This document shows positions 1 to 31,026 of a stretch of DNA of 35,609 nucleotides, in pieces. A program made the translations under genes and the position numbers. Every line of letters starts with the position of its first letter. Position 1 is the first letter of the stretch. The notes beneath the pieces were generated by a model. The model saw only the letters and a list, made by a program, of their open reading frames with translations, searched no databases and had not been told where the DNA came from. Location: the sequence record DRR723986_7750. The stretch is one strand, 5' to 3'.

Positions 1-30
1 GAGTTGGTGCGGAAGGGGGGACTTGAACCC
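1..30 (-). repeat. att site: duplicated 3' fragment of a tRNA (probably tRNA-Leu)
   Basis: The minus strand reads GGGTTCAAGTCCCCCCTTCCGCACCA-ACTC (T-loop, acceptor 3' strand, CCA). tRNA similarity stops at position 30, so this is a fragment and not a gene. Confidence 0.85.
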
Positions 31-146
31 ATGATAGCGATGTGTATCGATATTTCCAGAATGTGACTTTAGATCACAAACTATACAGAATTGAAGCCCA
101 CCAAATACTCGGATTTGTAAAGAGAGATAAGAGGTAATAGCCGATT

Positions 147-168
147 AGTGTATGCAATGTGTATGCAG
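147..168 (+). promoter_or_regulatory. Putative integrase arm-type binding sites (left)
   Basis: AGTGTATGCAATGTGTATGCAG contains tandem GTATGCA and matches 35531-35552 at 20 of 22 positions. Confidence 0.7.
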
Positions 169-213
169 TTTTATATATTCAAGCCTGACCACTTGAATAT
201 TGGAGTTCTATTC

Positions 214-1431
214 ATGACGATCAATTTCTACATAAATCGCCCCAGTGCCACCAAAGAGTCAGGAATCTATTTATATGTTCGTGGTATTGCAAAAGGAAAG
301 ACAATTGTAGTGCATACAGGCGAGAGCATCCTTAGCAAGCATTGGGACAAATCTAAGCAACGAGCTAAACGGTCATACATTGGTAGTCCTGAACTCAATA
401 GCTTTTTAGTCAAGATTCAGGAAAGCGTCAAAAAGACCTATCGAACATTAGCACTGGATCAATCCGATTTGGCATTCAACGATGTCAAAAAGGCAATCGA
501 AAAGCTCTTTGCAAACGAGGTTTCAGTTGACTACGAAGCTGAGTTTTTCTCTCGATACGAGGAATTCATTAAAGTTAAAAGCATAAATTGCAAAGCCAAC
601 ACGGTCAATAAGCACAAGTCACTCGTCAACCATCTTCGGCGATTCGCCAAACAGGCCAGCAGACCTATTACCTACGAAAATATTGATCAAGTATTCTACG
701 ATGACTTTTCTGCCTATATGTGGCAGGTTGCTGAGTTGACGAATAATACTTTGGGGAAATATCTGACGGCGTTCAAAACTTTTTTGAATTGGTCGTATGA
801 CCGCAAATTCACATCAAACGTAGACTATAGGAAATACACAATTCCAACTGAGAAAATTGAAATCGTTTACTTAAGTGAGTTGGAGCTGATGCAGTTGTAC
901 GACTTTGACTTTTCAGATTTTCCTACGCTCGAAAAAGTACGAGACGTATTCTGTTTCCAGACATTTACTGGACAAAGATTTTCAGATGTTGCCGACCTTG
1001 AATTTCAAGACACTTATGATGGTGTATGGCACTTGAGAACAACAAAAACAAAGGATGTCCTAAAAATACCTCTTAGTCGGTTTGCTCGGGAGATATTGCA
1101 AAAGTATCAGAGAGCAGAATCACTGCCGATTATGTCACACCAAAAAACGAATCAGTACATCAAAGCTGCATGTGAGCAAGCTGGAATTGTCGCCCCGATA
1201 ACGATCACGCGTTACAGAGCGAAAGAGAAGCTCGTTTTTACAGAACCCAAGTGCAGATTCGTTTCTACTCACACCGCTCGCAGAACCTTCATCACTCTAT
1301 CTTTAGAAAAAGGATTGCGAGCAGAAACCGTAATGAAAATTAGTGGACACACGAGCTACAAGGAATTCAAGAAGTACATCGTTTTGACTGACAAAGTGGC
1401 ACATAATGAAATTCTCAATGCTTGGAGTTAA
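214..1431 (+). CDS. Tyrosine recombinase/integrase (Bacteroidota-type with arm-binding and SAM-like domains)
   Basis: Catalytic set R (GQRFSD), K (TTKTK), HxxR (THTARRT), H (SGH), Y (FKKY). N-terminal 'IYLYV...TGESI...WD' arm domain. ATG at 214 preferred over GTG at 148, which lies within the arm sites. Confidence 0.95.
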   Translation: MTINFYINRPSATKESGIYLYVRGIAKGKTIVVHTGESILSKHWDKSKQRAKRSYIGSPELNSFLVKIQESVKKTYRTLALDQSDLAFNDVKKAIEKLFANEVSVDYEAEFFSRYEEFIKVKSINCKANTVNKHKSLVNHLRRFAKQASRPITYENIDQVFYDDFSAYMWQVAELTNNTLGKYLTAFKTFLNWSYDRKFTSNVDYRKYTIPTEKIEIVYLSELELMQLYDFDFSDFPTLEKVRDVFCFQTFTGQRFSDVADLEFQDTYDGVWHLRTTKTKDVLKIPLSRFAREILQKYQRAESLPIMSHQKTNQYIKAACEQAGIVAPITITRYRAKEKLVFTEPKCRFVSTHTARRTFITLSLEKGLRAETVMKISGHTSYKEFKKYIVLTDKVAHNEILNAWS

Positions 1432-1750
1432 TTGACACTTAGTTTCACTCATAGTACCGAATTTGAGTGTCACAATCGAATAGTAAGTGCCAAACCCCAC
1501 CTAATAATCAATCCAACGCCTTCTCATTGTAACCAGTCAGCCAGTGCGTCAAGGTCGTTCCACTCTCTTGACTTTCTGGCTTTGCCTGGTTTTTCAATGA
1601 GGCGTTTCGTATTTCTTAACTCTATCGAATAATGCGATTTATCATGCTCGTTTTTGTGTTCGAATCCTACGTTTTGATGGTTTGCAAGAGGTTGGATAAA
1701 GGATAGAAGAGCTACCTGAGAGATCTAATATTACTTTTAACTTTATTCAA

Positions 1751-2119
1751 ATGGATATTAAAACTAGACTGCTAATGGATTTACTGAAATGCAGCGAACC
1801 AGATATCGAGTTGATATGCAAGCTTGCTGAGACCTACGATAAGAAGTTCAACATTGACTTTTTCTTTCGGAATTGTTTCCGGGAACGCTGCAACACCGTC
1901 GAAGCCAGGAGAGACCACGTAATTGACTATTTTGCCCAGACTAAGATCAATACTTTCATCCGTGAGTACCTGACTGATATCGACCACATAACGGAGAGTG
2001 CGAGCTTGAACTTCAAACACGACATCTACATTGAAGGGCAAGGGCATGCCGACATTGTGTTTCACGATGAAGGCATCCAAAAAGCGTACAAAAGCTGGAA
2101 TGACAAACAGCCGATCTGA
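1751..2119 (+). CDS. Hypothetical protein, paralog of 6635-7027
   Basis: 122-aa ATG ORF followed by a terminator; aligns by eye with 6635-7027. Confidence 0.75.
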   Translation: MDIKTRLLMDLLKCSEPDIELICKLAETYDKKFNIDFFFRNCFRERCNTVEARRDHVIDYFAQTKINTFIREYLTDIDHITESASLNFKHDIYIEGQGHADIVFHDEGIQKAYKSWNDKQPI

Positions 2120-2148
2120 TACACTTCAGATAAAAATTGTTCGAATAG

Positions 2149-2177
2149 AGCCGGGCTTAGCCCCCGGCTTTTTCTTT
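2149..2177 (+). terminator. Rho-independent terminator
   Basis: AGCCGGG-loop-CCCGGCT stem followed by TTTTCTTT. Confidence 0.75.
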
Positions 2178-2289
2178 GTCGCCATTATAGATCCGAGAAA
2201 TGCCCAATGCAGAGTTGGTTGAATCCATGCAACTATTTCGAGACACCGACGTCCCATACAATTAACCACGTACCTTGTAGAGTTTGTTA

Positions 2290-2385
2290 AGCAAGTTTGG
2301 ATGTGTGCATGCACAGGACTTCGTCCTGACATTTCACACCCTAACTTGCTCAAGAGGGACGTGGTGAAACACCACCGTTCCCCCT
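2290..2385. promoter_or_regulatory. Putative origin of transfer (oriT)
   Basis: Directly upstream of mobC. Inverted repeat AGCAAGTT...AACTTGCT encloses palindrome TGTGCATGCACA and hairpin CAGGAC-TTC-GTCCTG; a second hairpin GTGGTG-AAA-CACCAC follows. Confidence 0.6.
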
Positions 2386-2433
2386 TAAGAATCCCCCAAA
2401 ACAACCTGATCGAAAACAAGGCGTGGAACACCC

Positions 2434-2859
2434 ATGACTCAATCTCCTACACCAAAAACAGACCGTCGTGAGTATTACCGAGAGTACCGAAAGCGAAACA
2501 AGCATAAGTGGAAAAGAGTGACCGTTACACTCACCACTGACGAGTATCAGAGATTTAACAAACTGGCACTGAGGGAAAGTCGAACAGTACCGGAACAGAT
2601 CAAGCTGATGGCACTAACAGAATTCACGAACATCCGACCGGCACCTCGTGAATTGGTCGTAACGGTAAAAGACGCCATCCGTGAACTGAGGAGAATTGGC
2701 AACAATGTGAATCAGTTGACCAAACGAGTCCATTCAGAGCGAGGCGGTATATTTAGAAGACATCTTCGACAGGCACCGGAGCTTCTCCGAACGACTATAG
2801 CGGAGCTTAATCAGATTGAAAGTTCGATCCGTTCAACCATCAATTCCACGAACGAATGA
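2434..2859 (+). CDS. mobC: Relaxosome accessory protein MobC
   Basis: Ribbon-helix-helix-like 'VTVTLTTDEY' and MobC signature 'ELRRIGNNVNQL'; stop overlaps the relaxase start (ATGA). Confidence 0.88.
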   Translation: MTQSPTPKTDRREYYREYRKRNKHKWKRVTVTLTTDEYQRFNKLALRESRTVPEQIKLMALTEFTNIRPAPRELVVTVKDAIRELRRIGNNVNQLTKRVHSERGGIFRRHLRQAPELLRTTIAELNQIESSIRSTINSTNE

Positions 2860-3716
2860 TTATCAAATCACTCTCCCGGAAGGTTCCGTCATTCGGTCAA
2901 CTCTATGCCTATATCCAAGACGGAAGTCGAGGGGTGGAAGAAGATTTTTTCAGCCGAAATTTGAATGTTTCTGACCTCTCGGATACTGGACAAGTTGAGT
3001 TTCGATTCAATGAGAATTATGATGCCCTACGCAAAAAGCAGCAGGGAAATGCTCTTTATCACGAGGTCATTTCCCTTTCGCATCACCCAGACATAAATCA
3101 GGATAGACAGCGTGATCTCTTGCATGAAATTGGGGAATTCTATTTGCAGCAGCGTGGCGATGACTTATTGGCATTTGCCGGAGTCCATTTTGAGACTGAC
3201 CATGTACACTTGCATATCATGATATCGAGCAACAACGTTATGGAGACCAACCGCCATGTTTTGTCGAAAGCTCAGTTTCGCCAAGCCCAGATCAAGACCG
3301 AGCGAATGGTACAAGAGCGGTTTCCGGAGCTGAATGAGCCAACATTGTATCAGACCAAGGAGCGAGCGAAAACGAAACGAATGGGAGAAAAGGAGTACCA
3401 GTTGGTGAAGCGAACGAAGCAGTCTTCCAAGAAGCAGGAATTGACGAAGCATTTGGGAGTGATTTTTCGGGAGGCTCGTTCGATTGACGATATGATGGAA
3501 AGGCTCAAAAGCCAAGATATTGAACTGTACAAGCGTGGACAGTCCGTTTCTGTCAAAGTGAATGGCGTGCGGTATCGGTTGAAGAAACTAGGATTGGAAG
3601 CTGAGTTTACGAAAACCGTAACCGGATTGGAAAGAAGCGAGTTGCGGAGGCAAGAAATCGAGAAGACGGCTCTAAAGCGTAGCCAGCGGGACAGAAATGT
3701 CGAACGAAAGCGATAG
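2856..3716 (+). CDS. Relaxase/mobilization nuclease (MOBP/VirD2-like)
   Basis: N-terminal Tyr (LYAYI), 'YHEVISL' motif II and HUH motif 'HFETDHVHLHIMIS'. Confidence 0.9.
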   Translation: MIIKSLSRKVPSFGQLYAYIQDGSRGVEEDFFSRNLNVSDLSDTGQVEFRFNENYDALRKKQQGNALYHEVISLSHHPDINQDRQRDLLHEIGEFYLQQRGDDLLAFAGVHFETDHVHLHIMISSNNVMETNRHVLSKAQFRQAQIKTERMVQERFPELNEPTLYQTKERAKTKRMGEKEYQLVKRTKQSSKKQELTKHLGVIFREARSIDDMMERLKSQDIELYKRGQSVSVKVNGVRYRLKKLGLEAEFTKTVTGLERSELRRQEIEKTALKRSQRDRNVERKR

Positions 3717-3822
3717 ATCGACTGAGTAACATGCAGTAATAGTAATGCCAACCTGAATTCCTATAAATTTGATTATTTTCGTGAGACGCCATTTCTACTT
3801 AAAAACTGTTACGAGGCTATAA

Positions 3823-4575
3823 ATGGATCTCACGGGAGAACTAGTTGCAGGAATCATCGGAGCATTTATCGCTGCACTGATAGGAGTGATCTGGAAAATC
3901 TGGATTCCTAACGCTGTTAAAAATCGTTTTTCTAAAGAACTAGCCGAATACAAGCGAAAGCAAGATGAGCAATTGGAGACCCACAAACGTAATCTACAAA
4001 TTTCATCGGAGAGATTAAAGGCACATACTTCTAATCAAATTACCGCTCTTAATCAGGTGCGATCTTTACTTAGAGAATTACATAAAAAGGTGATGAAATT
4101 TCATTTTCTTGGAATTGTGAGAATGGAATTTCTAAAGATTGTGAAAAAGCACTATCAACCTAACTCCCCATTGCCTGCAGGTTGGACAATTAGCGAAGAA
4201 TTAGTCTGGGGAACGATGCTTCCTAAGGCAGTGCTTTTCGAACCACTTGATGAAGATATCGAAACGCAACGAATCAAATTATGTGAATTGATAATGGATG
4301 AAATCGTTCCACAGCATTTGGCGTTAGTTGTGTACTTGAAGTCCGAAGGCGAGTTCTATTTAGGGCGGGAGATTTACGACACTATTGAGAGCTATATGAA
4401 TCTTTGTCATACTATGGTCAATGAAGTGTTCTTAGACACCCCGTCAAAATTTGACGAGGAATCTCTTTCCACACATCTCAACGCTATAACAGTAGTCTAC
4501 CGAAAATTGCACTCTGATATTGGTTCAATATATAAAGCTGAATCGGGACAGCCAGATTCTCAACCAGAAAACTAA
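3823..4575 (+). CDS. Hypothetical membrane-anchored protein
   Basis: 250-aa ORF with an N-terminal hydrophobic helix followed by a coiled-coil-like segment. Confidence 0.75.
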   Translation: MDLTGELVAGIIGAFIAALIGVIWKIWIPNAVKNRFSKELAEYKRKQDEQLETHKRNLQISSERLKAHTSNQITALNQVRSLLRELHKKVMKFHFLGIVRMEFLKIVKKHYQPNSPLPAGWTISEELVWGTMLPKAVLFEPLDEDIETQRIKLCELIMDEIVPQHLALVVYLKSEGEFYLGREIYDTIESYMNLCHTMVNEVFLDTPSKFDEESLSTHLNAITVVYRKLHSDIGSIYKAESGQPDSQPEN

Positions 4576-4586
4576 TATCGGATACA

Positions 4587-4823
4587 TTACAACCGTATTC
4601 TCCGATCAAACGGAGCTTTCTTCCTCCGCTCATCCTGCAACCGCTCCACATCTCTCACCAAGAATATCCGGCCACTCTCTGTTGCAAAATACTGCAATCC
4701 GCCCTTAGTGACCGGGCGTCGAGTCAAAGTCTCCAAATACTGATACGAAATACCCAAAAACCGACAAGCTTCACCGCTGGAATAAAGAGACTTTGAGTAT
4801 TCGTTGGATTGTCGTCCGTTCAT
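4587..4823 (-). CDS. Small excisionase/MerR-like HTH DNA-binding protein
   Basis: 'LYSSGEACRFLGISYQYL...GRIFLVRDVERL' matches the HTH_17-like pattern. Confidence 0.75.
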   Translation of the reverse strand: MNGRQSNEYSKSLYSSGEACRFLGISYQYLETLTRRPVTKGGLQYFATESGRIFLVRDVERLQDERRKKAPFDRRIRL

Positions 4824-4936
4824 CGTGATTCAATTTTAGATCACGGACAATTGATCGTATAGTTGAAACATTTAACATTCTCGACAAAACCGATTCACTC
4901 GACAAGTTTTAAGTGTGATCCTTTTTGAGCCCCTGA

Positions 4937-5012
4937 TGGTGGAAGCGACGAGAGTCGAACTCGCATCTCGTGGGTGACGAGCCGACGTGTTTTACCATTA
5001 AACTACACCCCC
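4937..5012 (-). tRNA. Non-canonical tRNA-like RNA (ambiguous anticodon CGT or GTC; possibly a pseudo-tRNA)
   Basis: 76 nt: GGGGGTG TA GTTT-AATGGTA-AAAC A CGTCGG-CTCGTCA-CCCACG AGAT GCGAG-TTCGACT-CTCGT CGCTTCC A CCA. D arm, T arm and CCA are intact; the anticodon arm is 2 nt too long. Confidence 0.75.
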
Positions 5013-5046
5013 CCAGAAATCCATCAGAGGCGTGAATTATGGTATC

Positions 5047-5074
5047 AAAAAGCCCTGCGTTAGCAAGGCTTTTT
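5047..5074. terminator. Bidirectional terminator-like hairpin
   Basis: AAAAAGCCCTGC-GTTA-GCAAGGCTTTTT. Confidence 0.7.
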
Positions 5075-5369
5075 GTCGTCACCCACGATATGTAGTTTAA
5101 CTACACGCCGGTTGTACCTAGAGTATACGCCAAGTGAATCGAGGCGTCAAGATCAGAGTTTGTGTTTTTCTGACCTTGCTGTTTGGCTTGGTTTAGTCTT
5201 TGTTGTAACCCTTCAATGTTTTTGCCACATCCCGATGGCTACGATTGTATCGCTCTTTGAATGTTCAACATGTCAATATGGGGGATGCGATGGATCGTAG
5301 TTGCACCTGTTGTTTCAAGAATATGATCTGCCTAATCAATTTACCGTCGAACCTTGTGAGGAGTTCTCT

Positions 5370-5849
5370 ATGAATTTCTTCAAAGACATTGCCACAGAGG
5401 ACGAAGCAAAACGACTGTATCGAGAGTTGTGTCTGAAACACCATCCTGATGTCGGTGGTGTAACCAAAACCATGCAGACGATCAATGCTCAGTACCGAGA
5501 GCTACTTGAAAAACTCAAACGCAGCTCAGGCATGGTGGATGAAGATGTTGTGGATGAAATGGAAATCGAACAAGAAATCATCGACCAAATCGGGAAGATC
5601 GTGTCCGTTACAGGAATTACAATTGAAATTGCTGGTCGATGGATATGGGTGACTGGAAATACATTTATACACAGAATTCAATTGAAAGAATCCGGCTACT
5701 TTTTCGCCCCGAAAAAGAAGTGCTGGTATTGGCGTTCGCAAAACGAAAAGTCGCACAATCGATCGCCAAAGCCACTGTCTTGGATTCGTGAGAAATATGG
5801 CTCGGTAGAGTATGGCAAAGAAGTAAACGAGAAGACACTGAAAAACTGA
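5370..5849 (+). CDS. J-domain (DnaJ-like) protein of the mobile-element type
   Basis: 'YRELCLKHHPDVGG...MQTINAQY' HPD motif, followed by 'GRWIWVTGNT...LKESGYFF..KKKCWYW'. ATG at 5370 follows GAGGAG. Confidence 0.85.
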   Translation: MNFFKDIATEDEAKRLYRELCLKHHPDVGGVTKTMQTINAQYRELLEKLKRSSGMVDEDVVDEMEIEQEIIDQIGKIVSVTGITIEIAGRWIWVTGNTFIHRIQLKESGYFFAPKKKCWYWRSQNEKSHNRSPKPLSWIREKYGSVEYGKEVNEKTLKN

Positions 5850-5915
5850 GACATCGGAGCAGTGATAAAAGCATTGTCATGTGAAACTTTAAACAAATGA
5901 GAGGAATAATCAGTT

Positions 5916-6293
5916 ATGAAAGTGTTCGAATTTCCAACCACTCCAATGCCTGGCGACGCAGTTCAGTTTGTCGGTGCGAGACGACGCTCTGCCAGCTGTT
6001 ACGATGTTCTGGGAGTGCTTAAGGGAACGATCGGAATAGCTCAGCAGAAATACTCAGTTGCGTTACAGCAGACCGCTGAATCGGAGAATGATCTTGCTTG
6101 TTGTACCGCATTTACCGATGCTAAAATTACCGTTGGAATCACAATCTCGGGAATCTCAATTTCTGACTTGGTGTTTACTGGTGTTTCATGTCCCGTTCCG
6201 TCTTGGTGGTGGAACAATGTCATCAACGCCCGAGAATGCTGCATGCTCAAAGATACGGTCCCCCTCTGGAGTTGGCATGGTCGAATCTGCTGA
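5916..6293 (+). CDS. Hypothetical protein
   Basis: ATG ORF with upstream GAGGA, co-oriented with the J-domain gene; no motif recognised. Confidence 0.55.
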   Translation: MKVFEFPTTPMPGDAVQFVGARRRSASCYDVLGVLKGTIGIAQQKYSVALQQTAESENDLACCTAFTDAKITVGITISGISISDLVFTGVSCPVPSWWWNNVINARECCMLKDTVPLWSWHGRIC

Positions 6294-6634
6294 AGAGCGT
6301 TTGTGCAATCAATCAATGAAATCGAGGTTTCATACGATTCTTGCCAAATTTCCATCAAAGCCTTGTTCATATTTGCAACAAGGCTTTTTCTCTGTAGAAC
6401 CATGAGCTTTACGCTCAAAGTCCGTTTCGGTCAATGAATGTGCCTATGACGCACTGCCGACCGGCAAAGCTGTTTGTCGGAGCGTAAGTTCGCGTCATGA
6501 GAAAGGGATTCGAATAAATGCTTGCCACGATACCAGTCGCAGCCAAAAAGCAATGTCGGACAAGCCTATACATGGCTTTTTGGCCTTCATCGACTGGTTC
6601 TGGAGTGGCACATAATTCGTAATCAATTATTCTC

Positions 6635-7027
6635 ATGATATCCGCTTCACAACAGTTTCTCTGCGACACCTTGCAATGCGGTCAAAGAGACATCGACTAT
6701 CTCGATCATCTGATTGACCGATACGACCTCCGTTTTTCGATCCAAGATGTTCTCAATTCCCACAAAAGCCGTGTTGTTGTTAATATTAATCATGTCATTC
6801 GAGCGGCTTACGAACTGGTGGCTGAATCATTCTGGCAACAAAACAAAGTTGCGATTCGGAAAGTAACAGGATGCTACAATATTTTGGATGTCGAATATGA
6901 CATCCATACCAATTTTGCTGACAGTCGCATTTGGTTCACCGATTCTGCGGTTCACGCCTTGTTTACTCAATGGGATCCACGGGCGTGTACAACTATCCAA
7001 AAACGAGTAGCGGTGCTTTGTCGTTGA
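6635..7027 (+). CDS. Hypothetical protein, paralog of 1751-2119
   Basis: Shares 'D.L.C...DI.....L...YD..F.I' and 'DI.......I.F.D......W' with 1751-2119. Confidence 0.75.
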   Translation: MISASQQFLCDTLQCGQRDIDYLDHLIDRYDLRFSIQDVLNSHKSRVVVNINHVIRAAYELVAESFWQQNKVAIRKVTGCYNILDVEYDIHTNFADSRIWFTDSAVHALFTQWDPRACTTIQKRVAVLCR

Positions 7028-7185
7028 TTGGCTGGTAAATAATACTTGACAAAATTATGATTAAGTATAACGTTTAATCAGATACAGGCTCTTTTACATT
7101 TCTTGATCGGATTATTGCTTTGCCTCCATGAGAAAACTGAAAGGAGGTAATGCTGGTAATCCGAACTCGACTTAAAGGAGTAGCT

Positions 7186-7392
7186 ATGAAAGAGTTATTG
7201 TGCTTGCTGGCCCCGATTAACTTCTGGGTTATCGCACTGTTATCTTTTGCACTTGCCTATTTACTTTCACCGGATGATGCTCTAGGAGTGTCAATTATTT
7301 ATGGCTTGATTCTCTGTTTTCTGGTGGAGCCTTTGATAAGTCTCAATAAATACCTAGATCGAATTTGCCGTCAAAGAGATGATATCGCCTAA
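7186..7392 (+). CDS. Small two-helix membrane protein
   Basis: AAGGAG RBS before the ATG at 7186; two hydrophobic segments. Confidence 0.6.
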   Translation: MKELLCLLAPINFWVIALLSFALAYLLSPDDALGVSIIYGLILCFLVEPLISLNKYLDRICRQRDDIA

Positions 7393-7426
7393 TCCTGCCC
7401 TAAACTGTATCAGCAAGCCCTTTCAC

Positions 7427-8071
7427 TTAGAAAGGGTTTTTTCTCATATCTTCAAAGTTTCGCTGGTAAAGGATTATTTCTATTCTTCGTCGGGCGGAAC
7501 TTGAATCTGTATCTACGTCGAATATTAGGAGGTGATTCGTATCGATTATCTGTCCAGCAGAGTAGGGCAGCCAGTAGCGAATAGATTTTAGATATCCGAA
7601 TTGTCGTCGCTTTTTTAGTACGTTGATAATGGCAACTGCTCGCATCATCCCAAGATCGACATTACTTCCCATTTGCATTAAAGAATCGGGTGCCGAACCC
7701 GAGAGAGTTTTGTAAAGCATGGTATCGAGATTGGACTGCTTATGTCGTCTGTAAGACTTGAGAACGGGTGCCCCATCAGTGTGCCCAATAACCATGATCG
7801 CATCAAAGCCGTGGTCTCGACTTTTTTGGTCGAGCAATGGTATATAGACCTTGTCAAGCGAGTCTATGAAATTCTTTTTTGGACGAGCGGAAGCAAAGTC
7901 AAACCGAAAGTTGTCATTTTCAGGAAAGACCAAAATTGCTGGATGGACGTTTGTGTTCTCGTCACCTTTAGAAATCAGTTTGAGTGTTTGTTCGCGAAAT
8001 GCAAGAGCAACAACAAAGAAAATGAAAGTAAGAACAATAAATAGCTCGGATCGTTGCATGAGTTGTGTCAA
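7427..8071 (-). CDS. MotB/ZorB-like protein with an OmpA-like peptidoglycan-binding domain
   Basis: Single N-terminal TM helix preceded by an acidic residue (SELF), 'F.F.SA', 'VIGHTDG', 'N.DLGMMRA.AI' and 'RRRIEI'. Start overlaps the upstream stop. Confidence 0.85.
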   Translation of the reverse strand: MTQLMQRSELFIVLTFIFFVVALAFREQTLKLISKGDENTNVHPAILVFPENDNFRFDFASARPKKNFIDSLDKVYIPLLDQKSRDHGFDAIMVIGHTDGAPVLKSYRRHKQSNLDTMLYKTLSGSAPDSLMQMGSNVDLGMMRAVAIINVLKKRRQFGYLKSIRYWLPYSAGQIIDTNHLLIFDVDTDSSSARRRIEIILYQRNFEDMRKNPF

Positions 8072-8982
8072 GATTTTACTCTCTCGGATTCGGCTTTAAC
8101 GAGATCAAACAATATCTTAAACTCCTCCACGAGCAAGGAAGATTCATCAATGTATTTTCGAAAGGTTTTCACAGAGGTGCGGGACGTACCGAGTTCCTTA
8201 CCCAATTCGGCGGACATAGTTTTTATTGACTTCAATGCGTCGTTGAGTGGCTCAGTGAAACTGCTTTTAAGTTCTGTTGATGTTGTTTCCAAAACGGTCT
8301 TCATACTTAAGAGAGTTTCTTTCATAGAATTGAGCGTCTCGGACAGGTGAGTCGTCAAATCATGTAGATTGGATTCAAGATGGACAGTTCCACTGCTGGC
8401 CTCTTCATACATTTTTCTCTGTCGTTTGTTTAGATTTTCAAATTCGTACGTACCTCTTTTGATGGTTTCCAGATATTCATCTTGTACGGATCGAAGTTCC
8501 TTCGAAAATGTGTGGAAGTCAGCCATCAAACCCTTCATGGCCCCGAGGACGTCCGTTTCTTTTGATTCTCTGTATTTGTGACTGATAAGGCTGCTAAAAA
8601 ACCAACCGACAATACTCGTAAGAAGGGAAAGAGCAAGCGGTCCTACAAAATGACCTATGTCAAAATTGACATGTCGAAGGTCGAAAATAGCAATCGAAAA
8701 TCCGATCAGGGTATACAAGTAGCCAAATGTACCTATATATCCGCTGAATGATTTGTACGCATTCTCGGGAACAGATATGAAAAATTCGCTATCAAACACT
8801 TCTTTCTTTACATAAAAGTAGCCACGGATTATGGTCGATAGACTGATGGCCGTTAAGAACGGAACAAGCCAAGGTAAGTACCAGACAAATGAAAAGATGA
8901 GAAGTCCCCCTCCAAGTCCGAGGACGATAAAGTAGCCTCTCCGAATCACCTTTTCAGCATGTTGAATATCGCCTAACCTCAT
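8068..8982 (-). CDS. MotA/ExbB/ZorA-like membrane protein with a helical cytoplasmic tail
   Basis: TM pair 'GTFGYLYTLIGFSIAI' and 'LALSLLTSIVG' fits the MotA/TolQ/ExbB pattern, followed by a ~170-aa heptad-rich tail; coupled to the MotB-like gene. Confidence 0.75.
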   Translation of the reverse strand: MRLGDIQHAEKVIRRGYFIVLGLGGGLLIFSFVWYLPWLVPFLTAISLSTIIRGYFYVKKEVFDSEFFISVPENAYKSFSGYIGTFGYLYTLIGFSIAIFDLRHVNFDIGHFVGPLALSLLTSIVGWFFSSLISHKYRESKETDVLGAMKGLMADFHTFSKELRSVQDEYLETIKRGTYEFENLNKRQRKMYEEASSGTVHLESNLHDLTTHLSETLNSMKETLLSMKTVLETTSTELKSSFTEPLNDALKSIKTMSAELGKELGTSRTSVKTFRKYIDESSLLVEEFKILFDLVKAESERVKS

Positions 8983-9761
8983 TTTTTACCCCTTAATAAT
9001 TTGTTTGCGAATCGAGTTGCAGAAGCTGAGAGTTGTTTATTCTTCGTGAATTCTTTTAGGTACTTGGTCACGGCTTCAGAACCACCGATGTCATCAGCAG
9101 CCGTCAGAACTACCATGTCCAGTATGTCATCCGCACTGGTTAAAGTGGTGCATTCTCCACCGGTAATGCGTGCGATTTCTTCAAACGTTTTGATGGTCTC
9201 ATGATGACTTCCAACCACGAAGCAATACACAGGGCGTTTAAGTTGTGCGAGTGCCTCTGCATGTTTGATGTAATCTCGTTCTGGGTGTGGAGGGGCGTCA
9301 CCAATGAGCAGAATACGCGTGGCTCTTTCGTCTTTACTGGCATATTCCAGGCCATACTCAATGGCTTCTGGATAATCACCGCCTCCAAAGCATTGTATGG
9401 TTCCGATAAACTTCTGGAGCTTCTTGGATGAATGGCTCCATCCGGACGCTTCCAGCAGGTCGTCACCATCGCAGTAATCACGAAAGGCCACCCAGTTCAT
9501 GTTGAATTCACCTATATCGGAAATTCGCTGAATGACTTCATTAATATGTTTTTTGGTTGCCGCCCACATCGAATCCATGGAACCGGTTGCATCGGTGAGA
9601 CCCATTATGTTTGAAACACGTATTGGTTTCTGTGCCTGATAGTCACGGAGCGTTTGCTCGCGTATTTTTTGTTGCCGGCTTTGATTTTTCTGTGTATCAC
9701 CGTCACTTAACATCTTTTTTGATTTAGGCGTTGTCAATCGGGGTTTACGTTGAGATGGCAT
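8979..9761 (-). CDS. von Willebrand factor A (vWA) domain protein
   Basis: MIDAS-like 'DATGSM', 'VAFRDY', 'GGGDYPEA', 'LIGDAPPH' and 'IARITGG'; RBS GAAGGAAGG. Confidence 0.9.
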   Translation of the reverse strand: MPSQRKPRLTTPKSKKMLSDGDTQKNQSRQQKIREQTLRDYQAQKPIRVSNIMGLTDATGSMDSMWAATKKHINEVIQRISDIGEFNMNWVAFRDYCDGDDLLEASGWSHSSKKLQKFIGTIQCFGGGDYPEAIEYGLEYASKDERATRILLIGDAPPHPERDYIKHAEALAQLKRPVYCFVVGSHHETIKTFEEIARITGGECTTLTSADDILDMVVLTAADDIGGSEAVTKYLKEFTKNKQLSASATRFANKLLRGKK

Positions 9762-9820
9762 AGCCTTCCTTCATGATTTGTGTTGAGTCGTTCCAGGACT
9801 CGGAAGGGACGTTAAATACT

Positions 9821-11254
9821 TTAGATTCGAGCATCAAAGCCTTCCGAAGTGATGTGTGCCCACATCGAGTACGCTTTGTTGACACGTCGAATCTTTTCTT
9901 CGCAGTCCGTACACTCCGGGTTGAAATCTGGATGATAGCGTTTTACCAGAATGTTTCTTTGTTTGTGAAGTAAAGGTTTCAGTTCTGCCAAAACCTCACT
10001 CGTCGCCGTCTCGAACGTGTAATCAGTGAGTTCCAGATCTGTCAGAATGGACCGAACGGTTTCATCCAGATCAAGTGTTTCCTCGGGATCATCGTCTTCA
10101 TAGGATTCGCCATCTTCGAATGCTTCCGAATCTGTTTCATGTGTGAAGTCCTCTTCGTCAAATGTTGATGCATCTTTCTCTCTGTGTGAAGATCTTGCAG
10201 TGGCGTCAATAGTTTTTAACGTTTCGAAATGAACGACCAATTCTTCTAAAATGTCAGATTCTTTGTCGTCGCATTTTCGCGTGGTCTCAAGGCACTGAAT
10301 GAGCTGATCGATTTTGAGGACGGTGGCGAGAAACATGTCACGATCTCTTGAAAGGAATCGAGATTCTGTTTCCATTTTATAGATTAGTGCTTTGATTTTG
10401 TCTTTGAGCCTCGTGTAGTACGCTCCGAATTCAACCCAGTCAGGGAGTTCTTCTTCCAGCTCATTCATGAGATCGAGTGACATCTCGTGCCAATTGTCAA
10501 ACGAGCGGTTTGTAAAATCATCTTTGAATCGTTGAAAGGGGAGAGAATGCTTCGCAATCTTGAGTTTAAGTTGTGCCACTTTGTGCATGAGTTCTGAAAT
10601 GATGTTGACATGACTCACATCGTGAGTCGCCATCGCCTCGTAGAGGGCCGCGTCTGACAGTTCAGATGAGTCTAAGAGATCGTAGTCGATTGACGCCAAT
10701 TTGCCGAAGAATTCATCAAGAAGGTCTCGCTTCTCTGTCTTTTTCCTGACCTCGTCAAACGTGAAATTGAGACGCTTGATATAGAGCCTGAGAGCTTGAA
10801 ATGCATCGTAATTTTGGGTGAGGGTCACAAGCGGAGAAGGCATCTTTGAGATTCCAATCGTTTGCAAGATTGATTGCAGGGCTTTGTGTTGCACTGGCAG
10901 TGTTCGCGATTGAGGGTCGGTAAAGACCGAAGGCAATTCATAAATTGCATCTGGCTTGTCTTTGGATGTGTACCGAAAGCCACCTGTTTTTTCGGCTGAC
11001 TCTGTTCGAGGGGGAGAGGTTCGTTTTCGGCGAGCATGTTCCTTTGGATCCGATTTGGGTTTCGCCCCTTTAGGACGGTCTTTCCTCGTTTTCGAGGTTG
11101 AATCTCGACGTTCGCCTTTTGGCGATGAATATTCAGCCTTTTCAAATTCCTCCGAGGCAGGCTTTGTGCGTCTTAATGGGTTCTTTTCGCGAATCCAGGA
11201 CGTTGCCATGTCCAACCGAGTCGCCTTTGAAAAGCGCTTCCAGAAGCTCCTCAC
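9821..11254 (-). CDS. Helical protein with a C-terminal J-domain
   Basis: C-terminal 'LVKRYHPDFN...EEKIRRVNKAY' (HPD), basic disordered N-terminus and an acidic linker. Confidence 0.8.
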   Translation of the reverse strand: MRSFWKRFSKATRLDMATSWIREKNPLRRTKPASEEFEKAEYSSPKGERRDSTSKTRKDRPKGAKPKSDPKEHARRKRTSPPRTESAEKTGGFRYTSKDKPDAIYELPSVFTDPQSRTLPVQHKALQSILQTIGISKMPSPLVTLTQNYDAFQALRLYIKRLNFTFDEVRKKTEKRDLLDEFFGKLASIDYDLLDSSELSDAALYEAMATHDVSHVNIISELMHKVAQLKLKIAKHSLPFQRFKDDFTNRSFDNWHEMSLDLMNELEEELPDWVEFGAYYTRLKDKIKALIYKMETESRFLSRDRDMFLATVLKIDQLIQCLETTRKCDDKESDILEELVVHFETLKTIDATARSSHREKDASTFDEEDFTHETDSEAFEDGESYEDDDPEETLDLDETVRSILTDLELTDYTFETATSEVLAELKPLLHKQRNILVKRYHPDFNPECTDCEEKIRRVNKAYSMWAHITSEGFDARI

Positions 11255-11334
11255 TCGTGGTCACCACATTGTGTATTAAACATTGTACGTGTTTATTGCC
11301 TGTATACTTAGAAAAGCGAGTATGCATCCTGCAT

Positions 11335-11625
11335 CTATCGGATGAGGACTTTTTGTGGCATATCCATCACTTCACTCTTTTTGAAATACACATTTCCCTC
11401 TAATCGGTAAAAGGGCAGAATGCCTTTTCGTTTCCATTTGTGAATCGTTGGTCGACTCCGTTTAAGTATTTTGCACACTTCGTCGATCGTAAGAAATTCA
11501 TCGAGTTCATCAGAACCTGTGTCAGGTTCTGAGCGATCGAGCGAATCAAATGCTTTTTGAACCGTTTCGGTCACCAGCATTCTGAATTCTTCCAAGGGAA
11601 TCGGTATGAGAACAATTTCATCCAT
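11335..11625 (-). CDS. Excisionase-family HTH_17 protein
   Basis: 'FLTIDEVCKILKRSRPTIHKW...G.LPFYRL...VYFKKSEV'. Confidence 0.9.
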   Translation of the reverse strand: MDEIVLIPIPLEEFRMLVTETVQKAFDSLDRSEPDTGSDELDEFLTIDEVCKILKRSRPTIHKWKRKGILPFYRLEGNVYFKKSEVMDMPQKVLIR

Positions 11626-11628
11626 AAA

Positions 11629-13224
11629 TCACCGATCCATCCGAGCGGTTTTCATTCGTTTGAGGAATGTTCTATTGTCATAGTAGCGAGTCGCTTTGAG
11701 TAAGAGTGGTTTGTGATTGCTATAGAGAAACAGCATTTGATCATCTGCCATTCGCCGGACTTCATCGGGTGTCATAAGCGGACGTTGTTTTTCCGTTTCT
11801 CTGGCTGTGTCGAGTTGAAAGCCTGTTTCCCGGTGGTTAAGTGTTCGGTTGCCGAGGGTCAATGAGATTTGTTGAGTCGTCTCGTAATTCTGAATGCCTG
11901 GCAAGTAGATTTTACTCGCACAGTTTTCGAGAATCGTTTCTGCATCAGCCGTGCCGTAGAGAGATGAAAGTTGTTTCAGTGACTGAATTCCCAGCGATAA
12001 ACTGACATCGTAGGAACGTGCAAAGGATATGATGTTCTGAAAGCCCGGGACTTTTGGAATGTTGGCAAATTCATCAAGCAAAAAGTAAATGGGTTTTTCG
12101 TCCGGACTGGGCGACTGGCTACAGCAATAGTCAAAGAGATATTTGTATAAAATCGTTAAAATGAATCCGTAATATTCAAGGCGATAAGTAGGTATAGTCA
12201 AAAAGAGTGCTACGGAATCAGTTCGCATGCTGTGAATGTTTAAGGAGTCTCGGCCAGAGGTGACTGCTAATAAATTTTCATCAAAAAAGGCGTCAAGTAC
12301 AATGCGTGCCGCACTTAACATGCCGTCACGACTTTTTTCGGGTTCACCCGTCCAAGATTTATAGATGCGAAAACTGTCGTCATCAAGATGCCGAAAGATA
12401 AGTTGTTCTACCGTTTCCTGTTCGTCCGTCCGGAGCATGGCTAAAAACTGTGCGACTGTTCCGAGGTGTTGTCGATTTGGTTCCAATTGTTTGGTGAGGT
12501 AGAGCAACACACCAATGAGTCGTTCCGCACCACTATTCCAATACACCTGATCGCCAGATGCTTTTGAATACTTTGCTTCAACCAATATATTCGCCAGTTG
12601 CCTCATTTCCGAATAGGTCGAAACGTAGTCCAGTGGGTTAAACACATGCGAATGCCGAGGATCGGCAAGGTTAAACCAACGGATTGTATAACCTTGCGAT
12701 AGAAGGTGCGGAATGACCAATTCGGCAATTTCACCTTTAGGATCGGTGCAGACACATGACTGACCAATCAAATTGCCAGCATTGACCATAAAGAAAGTGC
12801 TAGACTTACCTTTTCCGCTCGGACCAACAATCAGCAAGTGGTTGTAGCTGTTTTTCTCAGAAATTCTCTGAGTGCCATCGATATACAGTCCATCGTTCTG
12901 TTTGGACAAGAGCTTTTTCCGGTCTTTGCCTTCGAGCCACGCTGCCGATCCATAAATGGTACTCGACGTGCGTTTGAGAAGTCTGAAACACTTTTCAGCT
13001 AAGTATTTGAGAACCTTCCACGATGTACGAATAATCCAACCTACGCCGCGAAAAATGCCCCGAAAGATCGATTCAATATCGAGAGGAAATGTTGGTGCTT
13101 TGGAAAACAGAATCCACCTAACCACCGTGTACATGAGCCACAATGATATCCCTAAGCCTATCAGTTGCAGGAGAGCATCATAGACAGATGATCCAATGGA
13201 AGCAAAAGTAGCTGAATCTACCAT
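11629..13224 (-). CDS. Type IV coupling protein (VirD4/TraG family)
   Basis: N-terminal TM, 'YGSAAW', Walker A GPSGKGKS, 'DPKGE', Walker B 'FLLDEFANI', 'IQSLKQL..LYG' and 'RPLMTPDEVR'. Confidence 0.93.
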   Translation of the reverse strand: MVDSATFASIGSSVYDALLQLIGLGISLWLMYTVVRWILFSKAPTFPLDIESIFRGIFRGVGWIIRTSWKVLKYLAEKCFRLLKRTSSTIYGSAAWLEGKDRKKLLSKQNDGLYIDGTQRISEKNSYNHLLIVGPSGKGKSSTFFMVNAGNLIGQSCVCTDPKGEIAELVIPHLLSQGYTIRWFNLADPRHSHVFNPLDYVSTYSEMRQLANILVEAKYSKASGDQVYWNSGAERLIGVLLYLTKQLEPNRQHLGTVAQFLAMLRTDEQETVEQLIFRHLDDDSFRIYKSWTGEPEKSRDGMLSAARIVLDAFFDENLLAVTSGRDSLNIHSMRTDSVALFLTIPTYRLEYYGFILTILYKYLFDYCCSQSPSPDEKPIYFLLDEFANIPKVPGFQNIISFARSYDVSLSLGIQSLKQLSSLYGTADAETILENCASKIYLPGIQNYETTQQISLTLGNRTLNHRETGFQLDTARETEKQRPLMTPDEVRRMADDQMLFLYSNHKPLLLKATRYYDNRTFLKRMKTARMDR

Positions 13225-13421
13225 GTTAATTCGCGTGACTGTTCCCGATCGGGCTTAGCTCTGGATTGTTCCAACTGTTGCTTGCGGATTTCACGCTCTC
13301 CGATCTCGATCAAATAGCCCATCGCTACCGCAAAACCGCGATACGATTCTTGCTGTTTCTTTAGAATGCCGACGGCATCTTGAAGCGTTTTGAGGTCAAC
13401 GTCTTGATTGGATTCATTCAT
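13218..13421 (-). CDS. Small hypothetical protein coupled to the T4CP gene
   Basis: 67-aa helical ORF whose end overlaps the T4CP start. Confidence 0.6.
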   Translation of the reverse strand: MNESNQDVDLKTLQDAVGILKKQQESYRGFAVAMGYLIEIGEREIRKQQLEQSRAKPDREQSRELTW

Positions 13422-13475
13422 AGTGCAAAGTCTTGTGAGTATAAATTGAGGCAATTGAGTGCAAAAACAATTGAA

Positions 13476-13685
13476 TCATTTTCCAGCTGTGGCTTTTCCG
13501 TCCGGATGTTCCTGTCTCGCCTTGAATCCACATTGAGTACACAAAAGAACCGGATATTTGAATCCAGCAAGAACGGTATACTTTACGAAGTGCATGTAAC
13601 CAACAATTCCCGATTTCGGTGTCTTTTTAACACAATACGGACACTTACCACCTTCGCGTAATTGGGCTTGTCTCAAGACTTGCAT
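13476..13685 (-). CDS. Small zinc-ribbon-like protein
   Basis: CPYC...CTQC pairs; GGAG upstream of the ATG at 13685. Confidence 0.55.
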   Translation of the reverse strand: MQVLRQAQLREGGKCPYCVKKTPKSGIVGYMHFVKYTVLAGFKYPVLLCTQCGFKARQEHPDGKATAGK

Positions 13686-13876
13686 ATTCGGCTCCAAATA
13701 ATTGTTAAGAAAGACTGTGTTCAATTGACAAAAAGAAGACAAACTCGTTGGACTCGGCTACTTGTTCGGAGTCTTCAAAAAGAGACCGTCAAAGCAGCCG
13801 GAGTGCCAACGATCCATTACCAAACAGTGAAAAAGCACCACGTACACGGCTCTTCACGTTTAGAATGGGGGGATTC

Positions 13877-14071
13877 TTAGCGTTCTATTTCCGCTTCCGG
13901 TTCGGAAATGGACTTCGTTTGCTCCAAGCCTTGTTCGCGTTCCATTTTTTTGATGATGGCATATGCTTTCTTGAGGCTTTGATAGCCATTGCCAACGGCG
14001 TATCTGAGCTGTGTTAAGTCATCCACTTCCTTTTCAGGAGGGGAAGGGGTTTCATTCGTCGGTTTGTCCAT
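13877..14071 (-). CDS. Small hypothetical protein
   Basis: GGAGG RBS and a 64-aa helical ORF in the co-directional run. Confidence 0.65.
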   Translation of the reverse strand: MDKPTNETPSPPEKEVDDLTQLRYAVGNGYQSLKKAYAIIKKMEREQGLEQTKSISEPEAEIER

Positions 14072-14113
14072 GAGTTATACCTCCAAGGAAAAAGAGTATC
14101 AATTTCAATTGTT

Positions 14114-14716
14114 TTACTGGCTCTCGGTCGAAGCAATAGGCTCTTCTGGCCGAGACATGCGATTTTCATGATTGATGCTAAGGAGTTGCGAAAGTGTATT
14201 GCGTGAGCGAGAAACAACTCGTTTTTGTACCACCGTTAAAGAAAAAAACAGCGAATAGAACAACAGTAAGAAGACAAGATTGACATAACTGTCAATGGGC
14301 GGTGAAAATCCACCTGAATTGAATAAGTGATGTGCACGGAGTGGGATAACCAAAAATGAAAAGGACAAAACCATATAGCAATAACGTAATGGAGTTAACA
14401 ACGCACGCTTCATCGAGAAATTTAGAAGTTCTATTGATATGATTTGAAAAAATGCGAGTAACAGAGCAAGTACGATACTCGAATAGACCGATCCGATCCC
14501 CAAGCTTATACCAAGTAGGGAATAGAAGAGACTTGCAATTATCGTGGCTCTCAAGGCCAGGTAAATCGTGCCTAATTTTGAAAATTCATTGTCCCCGCTC
14601 ACGGTCTTTTTGACCGTGTCAACGCTCACCAATCGAATGTTCTTGCCATGTTCAAGAAAGGGAGGAAGAACGAACACGAGCACCATTATCAGAAAGACAA
14701 GAATCAACCAGAACAT
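14114..14716 (-). CDS. Multi-pass membrane protein
   Basis: About five hydrophobic segments; starts 10 nt after the JAB-E1 stop. Confidence 0.75.
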   Translation of the reverse strand: MFWLILVFLIMVLVFVLPPFLEHGKNIRLVSVDTVKKTVSGDNEFSKLGTIYLALRATIIASLFYSLLGISLGIGSVYSSIVLALLLAFFQIISIELLNFSMKRALLTPLRYCYMVLSFSFLVIPLRAHHLFNSGGFSPPIDSYVNLVFLLLFYSLFFSLTVVQKRVVSRSRNTLSQLLSINHENRMSRPEEPIASTESQ

Positions 14717-14726
14717 TCTGTTGTCC

Positions 14727-16304: not shown

Positions 16305-16341
16305 ACGAACGTCCTAGCGAATATCCGGTTATGAAAGAAGA

Positions 16342-17070: not shown

Positions 17071-17123
17071 CACACACTCCTGTAAACATAGTTTAAGTTA
17101 GTACAATTGTTGTATTGCAATTT

Positions 17124-17363
17124 TTAACTGTCAATTTTCGGTCGAGGCTTTGCTGGTTCATTAACAAGACCAGTCCAATCAATTAATCGTTTGCCCTCAC
17201 TATCAAATTCAATTACATTTTGAACTCGTTCTGATGTATTGGGCAATTGTTCATCGGGAATTTCTGAACTGGATATCTGAGAGATTTCCCGTTTAATAAG
17301 GTTGTTCAAGCCAACAGTACTATCTACTTCTTGACTTTCTTGCCGGATTCTTTGACGTGCCAT
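17124..17363 (-). CDS. Small protein with a C-terminal DWTGLxNEP motif
   Basis: Motif shared with 17455-17883 supports coding status. Confidence 0.7.
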   Translation of the reverse strand: MARQRIRQESQEVDSTVGLNNLIKREISQISSSEIPDEQLPNTSERVQNVIEFDSEGKRLIDWTGLVNEPAKPRPKIDS

Positions 17364-17454
17364 GTGATGTGTTGTAAATACAAACACATTTTAGCACGCC
17401 TCGAATACTGTGTCAATAGCTTAGAGCAATATTAATTCCTCCTTGAAATGAGCT

Positions 17455-31009: not shown

Positions 31010-31026
31010 TAGCTGCGACCTATTAA

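Follow-up and report, generated by a model that had tools for sequence, protein, structure and literature searches.

Introduction

Natural transfer RNAs (tRNAs) whose charging identity disagrees with their anticodon are rare, and to our knowledge only a few bacterial families have been described, none of them with a dedicated regulator. The identity set of alanyl-tRNA synthetase (AlaRS) lies in the acceptor end alone (G3.U70 and A73), and the discordant tRNAs known as allo-tRNAs have a long variable arm. Allo-tRNAs with G3:U70 insert alanine in Escherichia coli, with GUC among their predominant anticodons (PMC5389517), the dual-identity tRNAProX of Streptomyces mistranslate (PMC11415595), and the synthetase cognate to the anticodon may compete for charging (PMC10543346). 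Here we describe a tRNA gene in the 35,609-nucleotide (nt) stretch of DNA DRR723986_7750, the whole of which we call the window. The gene joins an Ala-type acceptor end to an enlarged, Asp-like anticodon arm and lies beside a candidate small RNA complementary to that arm.

tRNAProX and the allo-tRNAs resemble the window tRNA in being natural extra tRNAs with a mismatch between charging identity and anticodon. They differ from it in that tRNAProX has Pro identity, A34 and a dedicated synthetase, ProRSx, and in that allo-tRNAs divide their acceptor and T stems 8/4 or 9/3, where the window tRNA has 7/5 and a 4-nt variable loop. Neither an antisense partner nor an enlarged anticodon arm, both associated with the window tRNA, is mentioned for either family in the text consulted.

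Enlarged anticodon arms are known from other settings. The +1 frameshift suppressors sufD and SufA6 carry one extra base in the anticodon loop or stem, and in transfer-messenger RNA (tmRNA) a helix formed with distant sequence takes the place of the anticodon arm. SufJ decodes four bases (PMC4238358), and yeast mitochondrial tRNAThr1 has an 8-nt loop yet reads triplets (PMC3113583). These four tRNAs share an enlarged arm with the window tRNA, but they are laboratory mutants or products of organellar reassignment that keep their own identity, whereas the window tRNA has an Ala-type identity and two extra bases. tmRNA, for its part, is the other natural substrate of AlaRS and also places a G3.U70/A73 acceptor on a non-standard tRNA-like RNA, while the window tRNA has an anticodon arm and neither pseudoknots nor a tag frame.

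Type I and type III toxin-antitoxin systems resemble the window pair in their adjacent genes, neighbour-specific antisense RNA and location on mobile elements, and resemble the related units described below in having several diverged paralogs per genome. In the window pair, the target is a tRNA rather than a toxin mRNA or protein. We know of no small RNA that targets a tRNA anticodon arm, and a literature search covering main texts found no report of an antisense RNA acting on a tRNA anticodon arm or of regulated toxic tRNAs on mobile elements.

Results

A tRNA gene with an Ala-type acceptor end and an enlarged anticodon arm

ARAGORN finds one tRNA in the window, a 76-nt gene with encoded CCA at 4937..5012 on the minus strand (read 5012->4937); the initial annotation, made from the letters alone, had recognized the cloverleaf but missed its strand and also the most telling feature of the locus, a neighbouring candidate RNA gene that complements the anticodon arm. 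That annotation had suggested scoring the gene with ARAGORN and with covariance models. ARAGORN types it as tRNA-Thr with anticodon CGT, and Rfam places it in the tRNA family, RF00005, at 48.2 bits (gathering threshold 29, E = 1.7e-7), leaving the middle of the anticodon arm unaligned (13 bases against 11 in the model). The 7-bp acceptor stem comprises G1-C72, G2-C71, G3.U70, G4.U69, G5-C68, U6.G67 and G7-C66 and is followed by A73 and CCA. The D arm has a 4-bp stem and a 7-nt loop (AAUGGUA), the variable loop is 4 nt, and the T arm pairs GCGAG with CUCGU (including G49.U65) around the loop UUCGACU. In the acceptor, D and T stems together, every one of the 16 pairs forms (12 Watson-Crick, 4 G.U), and the tertiary positions U8, A14, A15-U48, G18G19, A21, U33, G53-C61, U54U55C56 and A58 are present. 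The cloverleaf, its encoded CCA, the identity signature (G3.U70, A73) and two further G.U pairs, all listed in the initial annotation, can be read directly from the DNA. The folding energy of the tRNA by itself is no better than that of shuffles (z = 0.26), as is common for unmodified tRNA sequences. A run of seven Gs at 5008-5014 (minus strand) covers the 5' end of the tRNA and puts two more Gs before G1; given this run, the mature 5' end could differ from the one called by ARAGORN.

The anticodon arm, CGUCGGCUCGUCACCCACG, is 19 nt long, and deletion of two Cs converts it to CGUGG-CUGUCAC-CCACG, the Asp arm that the initial annotation had pointed out together with an alternative fold with a CGT anticodon; both descriptions hold. 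As encoded, the arm has two practically isoenergetic folds, 0.4 kcal/mol apart. Fold 1, the one adopted by ARAGORN, contains a C.C mismatch and a 7-nt loop, CUCGUCA, with anticodon CGU and C37 (cloverleaf -15.9 kcal/mol, arm alone -1.8 kcal/mol). Fold 2 contains a bulged C and an 8-nt loop, C-U-[CGUC]-A-C (cloverleaf -15.5 kcal/mol, arm alone -1.4 kcal/mol), and alone of the two retains U33 together with a purine at 37, which would place a four-base anticodon, CGUC, between these positions. Because the string UCGUCAC of this loop also occurs in an inverted copy at 5076-5092, the extra loop C is not a one-off error, and sequencing error is a disfavoured explanation for that base.

To place the gene, we compared it with the identity elements of known tRNA classes. 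In a control set of 460 scorable phage tRNAs, 14 have G3.U70; ten of these also have A73 and all ten are tRNA-Ala, with no such gene among the 450 others. The combined signature is specific to tRNA-Ala in this set. The window tRNA carries the signature, but its loop, CUCGUCA(C), has no NGC triplet after U33 as tRNA-Ala would. Its 19-nt arm also departs from that of a canonical elongator tRNA (17 nt, with a 5-bp stem, a 7-nt loop, U33 and a purine at 37). Identity as tRNA-Asp involves GUC in a 7-nt loop and G73, and here an extra C precedes GUC and the discriminator is A73; identity as tRNA-Thr involves CGU with G1-C72/C2-G71, and here CGU appears only in the 7-nt fold (with C37) and pair 2-71 is G-C rather than C-G. 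With its 7-bp acceptor stem and 5-bp T stem, the gene also lacks the 8/4 or 9/3 architecture of allo-tRNAs. We rejected a tmRNA-like reading, as ARAGORN reports no tmRNA in the window and Rfam gives no tmRNA match in it, nor one at E<=10 in a scan of 4600-5400; a permissive Rfam scan of the latter region gave no T-box leader either. The idea of an "Ala-type body" was likewise dropped, since the compact D arm proved generic: the 48 tRNAs that share it in phage contigs are Gly (22), Trp (14), Thr (10), Ala (1) and undetermined (1).

A metagenome pattern scan returned 17 loci, 16 of them tRNA-Ala and one a G3.U70/A73 gene with a GAC anticodon, from a pattern biased toward Ala by its demand for TCCAC at positions 70-74. 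The exception (L049 7248-7321) has G3.U70, A73, CCA and a GAC (Val) anticodon, and no antisense partner lies within 400 nt of it.

A predicted small RNA complements the anticodon arm

A candidate small RNA of ~74 nt, which we call sRNA-X, is predicted at 5042..5115 on the minus strand, with its ends placed from a promoter and a U-run. It would consist of a 5' hairpin, a tRNA-complementary stretch and a terminator hairpin, and is preceded by a sigma-70-type promoter-like site, TTGACG-17-TATACT (10/12), found by promoter scan at 5122..5150 (minus). Within the complementary stretch, the segment CAUAUCGUGGGUGACGA (5076..5092, minus) matches tRNA positions 33-49, UCGUCACCCACGAGAUG (4964..4980, minus), at 16 of 17 positions, 13 of them contiguous, and its complementarity extends to the extra loop C. 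The two segments form a 17-nt inverted repeat (94%) that occurs at only these two places in the window, against 0.06 expected by chance. A second segment, UUAAACUACA (5091..5100, minus), complements tRNA positions 6-15 on the D-arm side at 10 of 10 positions; this 10-nt repeat is not significant alone, as both it and an 11-nt leader/trailer pairing (91%) are of a size expected by chance in 700 nt. The terminator-like element at 5046..5075 is a 13-bp hairpin that follows an A-run and precedes a T-run, and so is bidirectional in layout. It is stabler as minus-strand RNA (-19.6 kcal/mol versus -16.2 on the plus strand) because one position is G.U there and C.A on the plus strand.

The predicted energy is -32.3 kcal/mol for the fold of sRNA-X itself and -31.5 kcal/mol for its duplex with the tRNA arm. 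For the 194 nt that span the sRNA-X promoter, sRNA-X and the tRNA, the predicted fold has -82.5 kcal/mol, while shuffles give -53.9+-3.9 (z = -7.3). For the tRNA, a possible promoter, TTGCTA-16-TACCAT with a TG before it, can be picked out by eye at 5039..5066 (minus), below the threshold of the scan. From these elements we infer transcription of both RNAs. The partner RNA belongs to no Rfam family above threshold.

On the plus strand, the DNA of sRNA-X reads as a degenerate inverted tRNA-like copy (T2, 5026..5113) that ARAGORN calls at a relaxed threshold only. T2 is colinear with the tRNA once the hairpin is taken out, but only the 17-mer is well kept; the local alignment of the two scores 29, against 13.0+-2.1 for shuffled sequences, and none of 2000 shuffles reaches 29.

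Such complementarity is rare. When 446 ordinary tRNAs were searched with 400-nt flanks, same-strand complements to positions 24-50 measured at most 11 nt, and none of the 446 reaches 12 nt. The window complement runs to 13 contiguous nt, and those of the relatives described next to 14, 14 and 13, with two more pairing at 12-13 of 13 positions with one mismatch or G.U. Both the complementarity and its rarity are direct observations.

Relatives in Hakubella-type genomes pair the same acceptor end with co-varying putative antisense partners

To look for relatives, we used a pattern in which GGGG at positions 1-4, the D arm and the T loop were prescribed, whereas any anticodon arm and 3' acceptor strand were allowed. 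Of 185,579 species genomes, only two matched: Candidatus Hakubella thermalkaliphila S34 (G002) and a related metagenome-assembled genome (G001). Their genes are called as tRNA-Asp (GTC or ATC), yet have the acceptor stem GGGGCCG/CGGCUCC, with G3.U70, and A73. They share with the window gene this acceptor signature, the D arm, the 4-nt variable loop, the T arm and an Asp-type loop, as well as a same-strand small-RNA neighbour complementary to the anticodon arm; outside that arm they are 80-87% identical to it over 54 columns. Unlike the window gene, they sit in a chromosomal rmlA-D context with no mobile element, lack a full CCA and have 17-nt arms with 7-nt loops, the window copy alone having 2 nt more. 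BLAST of window positions 1-20000 against G001 and G002 matched the tRNA only, the small-RNA scaffold showing no similarity.

Since G002, among its 46 tRNA genes, also has a canonical tRNA-Asp (GUC, G73) in a tRNA cluster and three tRNA-Ala genes, the odd genes are extra. Their acceptor stem departs from that of the G002 tRNA-Asp by A3>G alone, and their discriminator by G73>A. The nearest relatives of the window gene are therefore extra genes that combine Ala-type ends with Asp anticodons beside a canonical tRNA-Asp. This fits the earlier guess of an Asp-derived arm and, together with the Ala specificity of the signature in the control set and the non-Ala anticodon, bears out the judgement of the initial annotation that the window gene is not a normal tRNA.

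In the Hakubella-type units, the predicted tRNA promoter is TTTACG-17-TATAAT with TG, and a second one, TTGACA-17-TACAAT (11/12), which would drive the partner RNA, lies ~35 nt past the 3' end of the tRNA. The first 13-14 nt of the partner RNA complement the anticodon stem-loop of its own tRNA; CCAUUAAAC, which complements the D arm, comes next, and a conserved scaffold then leads to a terminator of 12 bp. The window likewise has a same-strand neighbour with a complement of at least 12 nt, a promoter-like site and a terminator-like hairpin, and it has G3.U70/A73 with an Asp-type anticodon core (GUC after a C, against GUC or AUC in the relatives). It differs in gene order and small-RNA scaffold, its partner being upstream and the complement internal.

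The arms of the three paralogous units differ, and their partners change to match. Across five units, 95.7% of the 70 cells in 14 arm-partner pairs are paired, and sliding the partner by 1-3 columns lowers this share to 33-47%; six pairs have changed on both sides, and none of 500 shuffles reaches the covariation score (set of 5 sequences, from 3 paralog lineages in 2 close genomes). In duplex energy, each of four tRNAs does best with its own partner (-23.1 to -31.5 kcal/mol, versus -13.1 to -24.1 kcal/mol with the other partners). The initial annotation had proposed looking for covariation among homologs; arm and antisense partner do co-vary, as observed over these five Hakubella-type units rather than for the window gene itself. 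Throughout, the anticodon core NUC is kept (GUC, GUC and AUC; GUC in the window) while the stems diverge, which suggests that decoding of Asp codons matters. That the pairing of arm and partner is found in a distant bacterium as well suggests a switchable mis-reading tRNA. What is added to the picture of an abnormal tRNA is thus, the comparison suggests, a cognate antisense RNA that is common to, and co-varies in, a distant lineage.

The unit was found in 2 of 87 genomes searched of that class. Its copies (L001 1339-1560, 3290-3512 and 5308-5532; L002; L103) lie dispersed among rmlD, rmlB, rmlC and rmlA, and every copy is oriented divergently to an rml gene. The small RNAs open with a six-codon frame of the form GCN...UAA (ALTRRR*, ALTEHH*, AVMGHH*, AVMGRH*); the four frames fall in one ungapped block and so are not independent. 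One unit gives a sub-threshold match to permuted tmRNA (23.1 bits, gathering threshold 47). Our literature search found no description of the Hakubella-type hybrid genes, although supplementary lists (e.g. Mukai et al.) might include relatives.

Enlarged anticodon arms recur on a related scaffold

A looser pattern applied to 401 genomes of the Hakubella phylum added one genome, G101, and BLAST together with a covariance model (R1) over 104 genomes of the order of G101 added two more, G475 and G425 (3 of 104); these denominators include 8 genomes flagged as unpublished, on which none of the positive findings depends. The odd genes head the model's ranking at 81.2, 73.8 and 70.3 bits, with ordinary tRNA-Gly(UCC) at ~68 bits, so that the model is not selective and served for ranking only. 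The three genes (L104 9044-9117 in G101, L106 1501-1575 in G475 and L107 580-652 in G425) have the acceptor stem GGGGGCG/CGCCCCC and A73, with G3-C70 and hence no Ala signature. Their arms are 18-19 nt long, with an extra C in the stem and compensatory stem changes, and their loops are CU[CUCC]AA, CU[ACCC]AA (four-base anticodons according to ARAGORN) and CU[UGCC]A, each a Gly anticodon with one extra base before it, as GUC follows a C in the window. Judged from these genes, the enlarged-arm layout recurs in related scaffolds, and they may be natural four-base-anticodon tRNAs. On one side of them is a small gene and on the other a DDE transposase, and none has an antisense partner. The three acceptor G.U pairs of the window tRNA are exactly C>U changes from the G101 stem.

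The tRNA is internal cargo of a mobile element

The window looks like one integrated mobilizable element, inserted in the 3' end of a tRNA gene just past its right end. Bases 5-30 (minus) belong to a different tRNA, of which they form the 3' fragment with T loop, acceptor strand and CCA, and the last nine bases (35601-35609) repeat the first nine. Because the end fragment belongs to a different tRNA, the odd tRNA is internal cargo and not the attachment site; a role for it as attachment site was rejected, its 3' end being repeated nowhere in the window.

The element encodes a tyrosine integrase (148-1431), MobC and a relaxase (2434-3716), a type IV coupling protein (11629-13224; <30% identical to plasmid proteins among the matches listed) and a large serine recombinase. 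On the minus strand, a ThiF/E1-like protein at 14114-17073, with unknown neighbours, weakly matches the anti-phage 6A-MBL cap2_3 model, and further defence-type cargo at 30062-35171 comprises a PD-(D/E)XK nuclease and UvrD helicase pair and DpdA. DpdA matches NF041059 at 346.7 bits and has an N-terminal DUF6884; no other Dpd genes were recognised near it. Matches to the N6-DNA-methylase N-terminal domain fall in three overlapping or abutting open reading frames (ORFs) at 23831-25440 on the plus strand (23831-24523; 24548-25051, in the same frame past a stop; and 24694-25440, in another frame). Together they may represent a methylase gene that has been disrupted.

Near and distant searches of annotated plasmids and phages gave no DNA match to the tRNA region, and viral contigs scanned with the family pattern and with the arm sequence gave 0 loci each. 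A neighbouring protein of 250 amino acids (3823-4575) has one homolog, at 32% identity, and no family match. Just 3' of the tRNA, a 78-amino-acid ORF (4587-4823, minus) that could be co-transcribed with it has a weak match to the excisionase-type HTH_17 family (E 0.005, below gathering). The promoter scan also gave a plus-strand promoter-like site, TTTAGA-17-TATAGT (9/12), at 4835..4863, directed antisense across the tRNA. An operator-like motif, ATCACGGACAATTGATCGTAT, occurs at 4840-4860, 16038-16058 and 18647-18667 (76-100% identity), with an inverted form near 5335-5347; the first copy lies between the hexamers of the plus-strand promoter, directly upstream of a small minus-strand ORF.

We also searched the window for sites of the sequence GAC-G at which a +1 shift would link two long open frames. 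None links frames of at least 80 codons on each side, and a relaxed search gave one match, antisense to a gene. The element's own genes contain 51 in-frame GAC-G among 7606 codons.

Discussion

Our favoured reading, to which we give a probability of roughly 0.4, is that the window tRNA derives from an Asp-type tRNA, can be charged by AlaRS and mis-decodes or shifts frame, under the control of a cognate antisense RNA. Mis-decoding or frameshifting is one of the three roles listed in the initial annotation, the others being a tRNA decoy and a processed regulatory RNA, and that interpretation is supported in part. The tRNA and the small RNA encoded ~30 nt upstream on the same strand, with a predicted promoter and terminator of its own, would form a two-gene unit. 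The small RNA, which complements the anticodon loop, 3' stem and variable loop and has a weaker match to the D-arm side, would bind the tRNA or its precursor, open or mask the decoding end and keep the tRNA from translation. When the small RNA is scarce, the tRNA would be free and charged with alanine. It might then read GAC, giving either Asp-to-Ala missense or, via the 8-nt loop C-U-[CGUC]-A-C, a +1 shift at GAC-G; reading of ACG would be less likely than that of GAC. The mobile element would then carry a mis-decoder that is gated and potentially toxic, with a logic like that of a toxin-antitoxin pair. For the window pair we infer alanylation, decoding and a biological role from its sequence and that of its relatives.

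Several observations weigh against this reading. Some concern the pairing. The window version of the tRNA is a single copy with no ortholog in the collections searched, and so offers no co-variation for the window gene. Its layout differs from that of the relatives (partner upstream with an internal complement, versus downstream with a 5'-terminal one), and the two layouts may be convergent, or that of the window merely the scar of the inverted duplication that left T2. Gene conversion between inverted repeats could also preserve the complementarity as a property of the DNA, and the count of co-varying pairs, drawn from 5 sequences, fits gene conversion as well as RNA pairing. The promoters are predictions from consensus matches. 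Other points concern the tRNA itself. The weak anticodon arm (-1.8 kcal/mol, with a C.C mismatch or bulge) may prevent use on the ribosome, 3 of 7 acceptor pairs are G.U, and because the G101 scaffold has G-C in all three positions, G3.U70 in the window could be C>U drift rather than the product of selection. Among the relatives, one (HakB) has a disrupted G53-C61, and they lack a full CCA, although it is encoded by the 43 ordinary G002 tRNA genes whose 3' end could be read. Concerning function, an active GAC-G frameshifter would strike the element's own genes at their 51 in-frame GAC-G, the search of the window for a GAC-G frameshift target found none, and no membrane toxin peptide was evident by eye among the 19 ORFs of at least 20 amino acids in 4576-5300.

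Toxic genes on mobile elements are often inactivated by small insertions, and the window tRNA may be such a case, a member of a family that works now or once did, disabled by two single-base insertions in its arm that leave it foldable but non-decoding. We regard this as possible, if doubtful. It would account for the 2 extra nt in the decoding arm only, where relatives have canonical 17-nt arms and 7-nt loops, and it agrees with the marginal stability of the arm, the G.U-rich acceptor stem and the disrupted look of other genes of the element, such as the split N6-methylase ORFs at 23831-25440. Yet the partner carries the complement of the extra loop C, which means that both sides show this insertion and that it did not arise as a lesion suffered recently by one copy. 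The remaining stem pairs and tertiary positions are also intact, with 0 mismatches in 16 pairs, and the 8-nt loop retains U33 and A37, like the four-base-anticodon genes of G101 and G475.

A gated tRNA could also serve as the toxin of an RNA-only toxin-antitoxin or abortive-infection module, in which a short-lived antisense antitoxin would unfold the anticodon and D arms of an Ala-charged mis-decoder; we consider this specific form unlikely. If it were true, loss of the element or shut-off of transcription would free the stable tRNA and poison translation, and the diverged arm/seed pairs within one genome would be orthogonal copies, as in toxin-antitoxin families.

Also unlikely is a tRNA-shaped RNA that does not decode at all and is instead an alanine donor for a non-ribosomal transferase, a decoy for a tRNA nuclease, or part of a pair in which either RNA acts as a sponge for the other, with antisense pairing keeping the tRNA off the ribosome or titrating the partner. 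The acceptor and T-arm half is the best preserved, the anticodon arm appears masked by design in all units, the relatives' units lie among the rmlA-D cell-envelope sugar genes, and the element carries defence-type cargo (DpdA, UvrD/PD-(D/E)XK, the ThiF-like E1), all of which would suit such a role. Preservation of the anticodon core NUC while the stems diverge argues that the anticodon itself matters, and no Fem/MurM-type transferase or tRNA nuclease was recognised beside the tRNA.

It is improbable, in our view, that the locus is a feature of the DNA alone, with the tRNA and its inverted partial copy as scars of duplication, inversion or site-specific recombination at an attachment site of tRNA type and the 17-bp repeat as a site for a recombinase or regulator. 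In favour of this view, tRNA genes serve as targets of integration, and the element is itself lodged in a tRNA 3' end and has both a tyrosine and a large serine recombinase; T2 is colinear with the tRNA, and a hybrid origin would explain the acceptor G.U pairs. Against this stand the relatives, whose complementarity comes with good promoters and terminators, in a non-mobile context, and co-varies across paralogs. The G.U in one relative's partner pair (Hak2) and in the window hairpin fits RNA pairing and not DNA pairing, and neither end of the tRNA has a second copy elsewhere in the window.

Very improbable is a dedicated quadruplet decoder that reads GAC-G in one step for programmed +1 recoding of a specific element or host gene: the loop C-U-[CGUC]-A-C is laid out as in engineered four-base decoders (PMC9094753), and related scaffolds carry CUCC and ACCC, but no GAC-G site joins frames of at least 80 codons on each side in the window, the one relaxed match is antisense to a gene, and the element's own genes hold 51 in-frame GAC-G.

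tRNAs with discordant identity and anticodon bear on how fixed the genetic code is. If the AlaRS-chargeable, antisense-gated reading is true, a co-varying antisense RNA dedicated to one tRNA would constitute a new kind of mis-decoding switch, and on a mobile element the pair could act as an addiction or defence module. If it works, the ~200-bp pair would also be a natural template for orthogonal, RNA-gated suppressor or quadruplet tRNAs.

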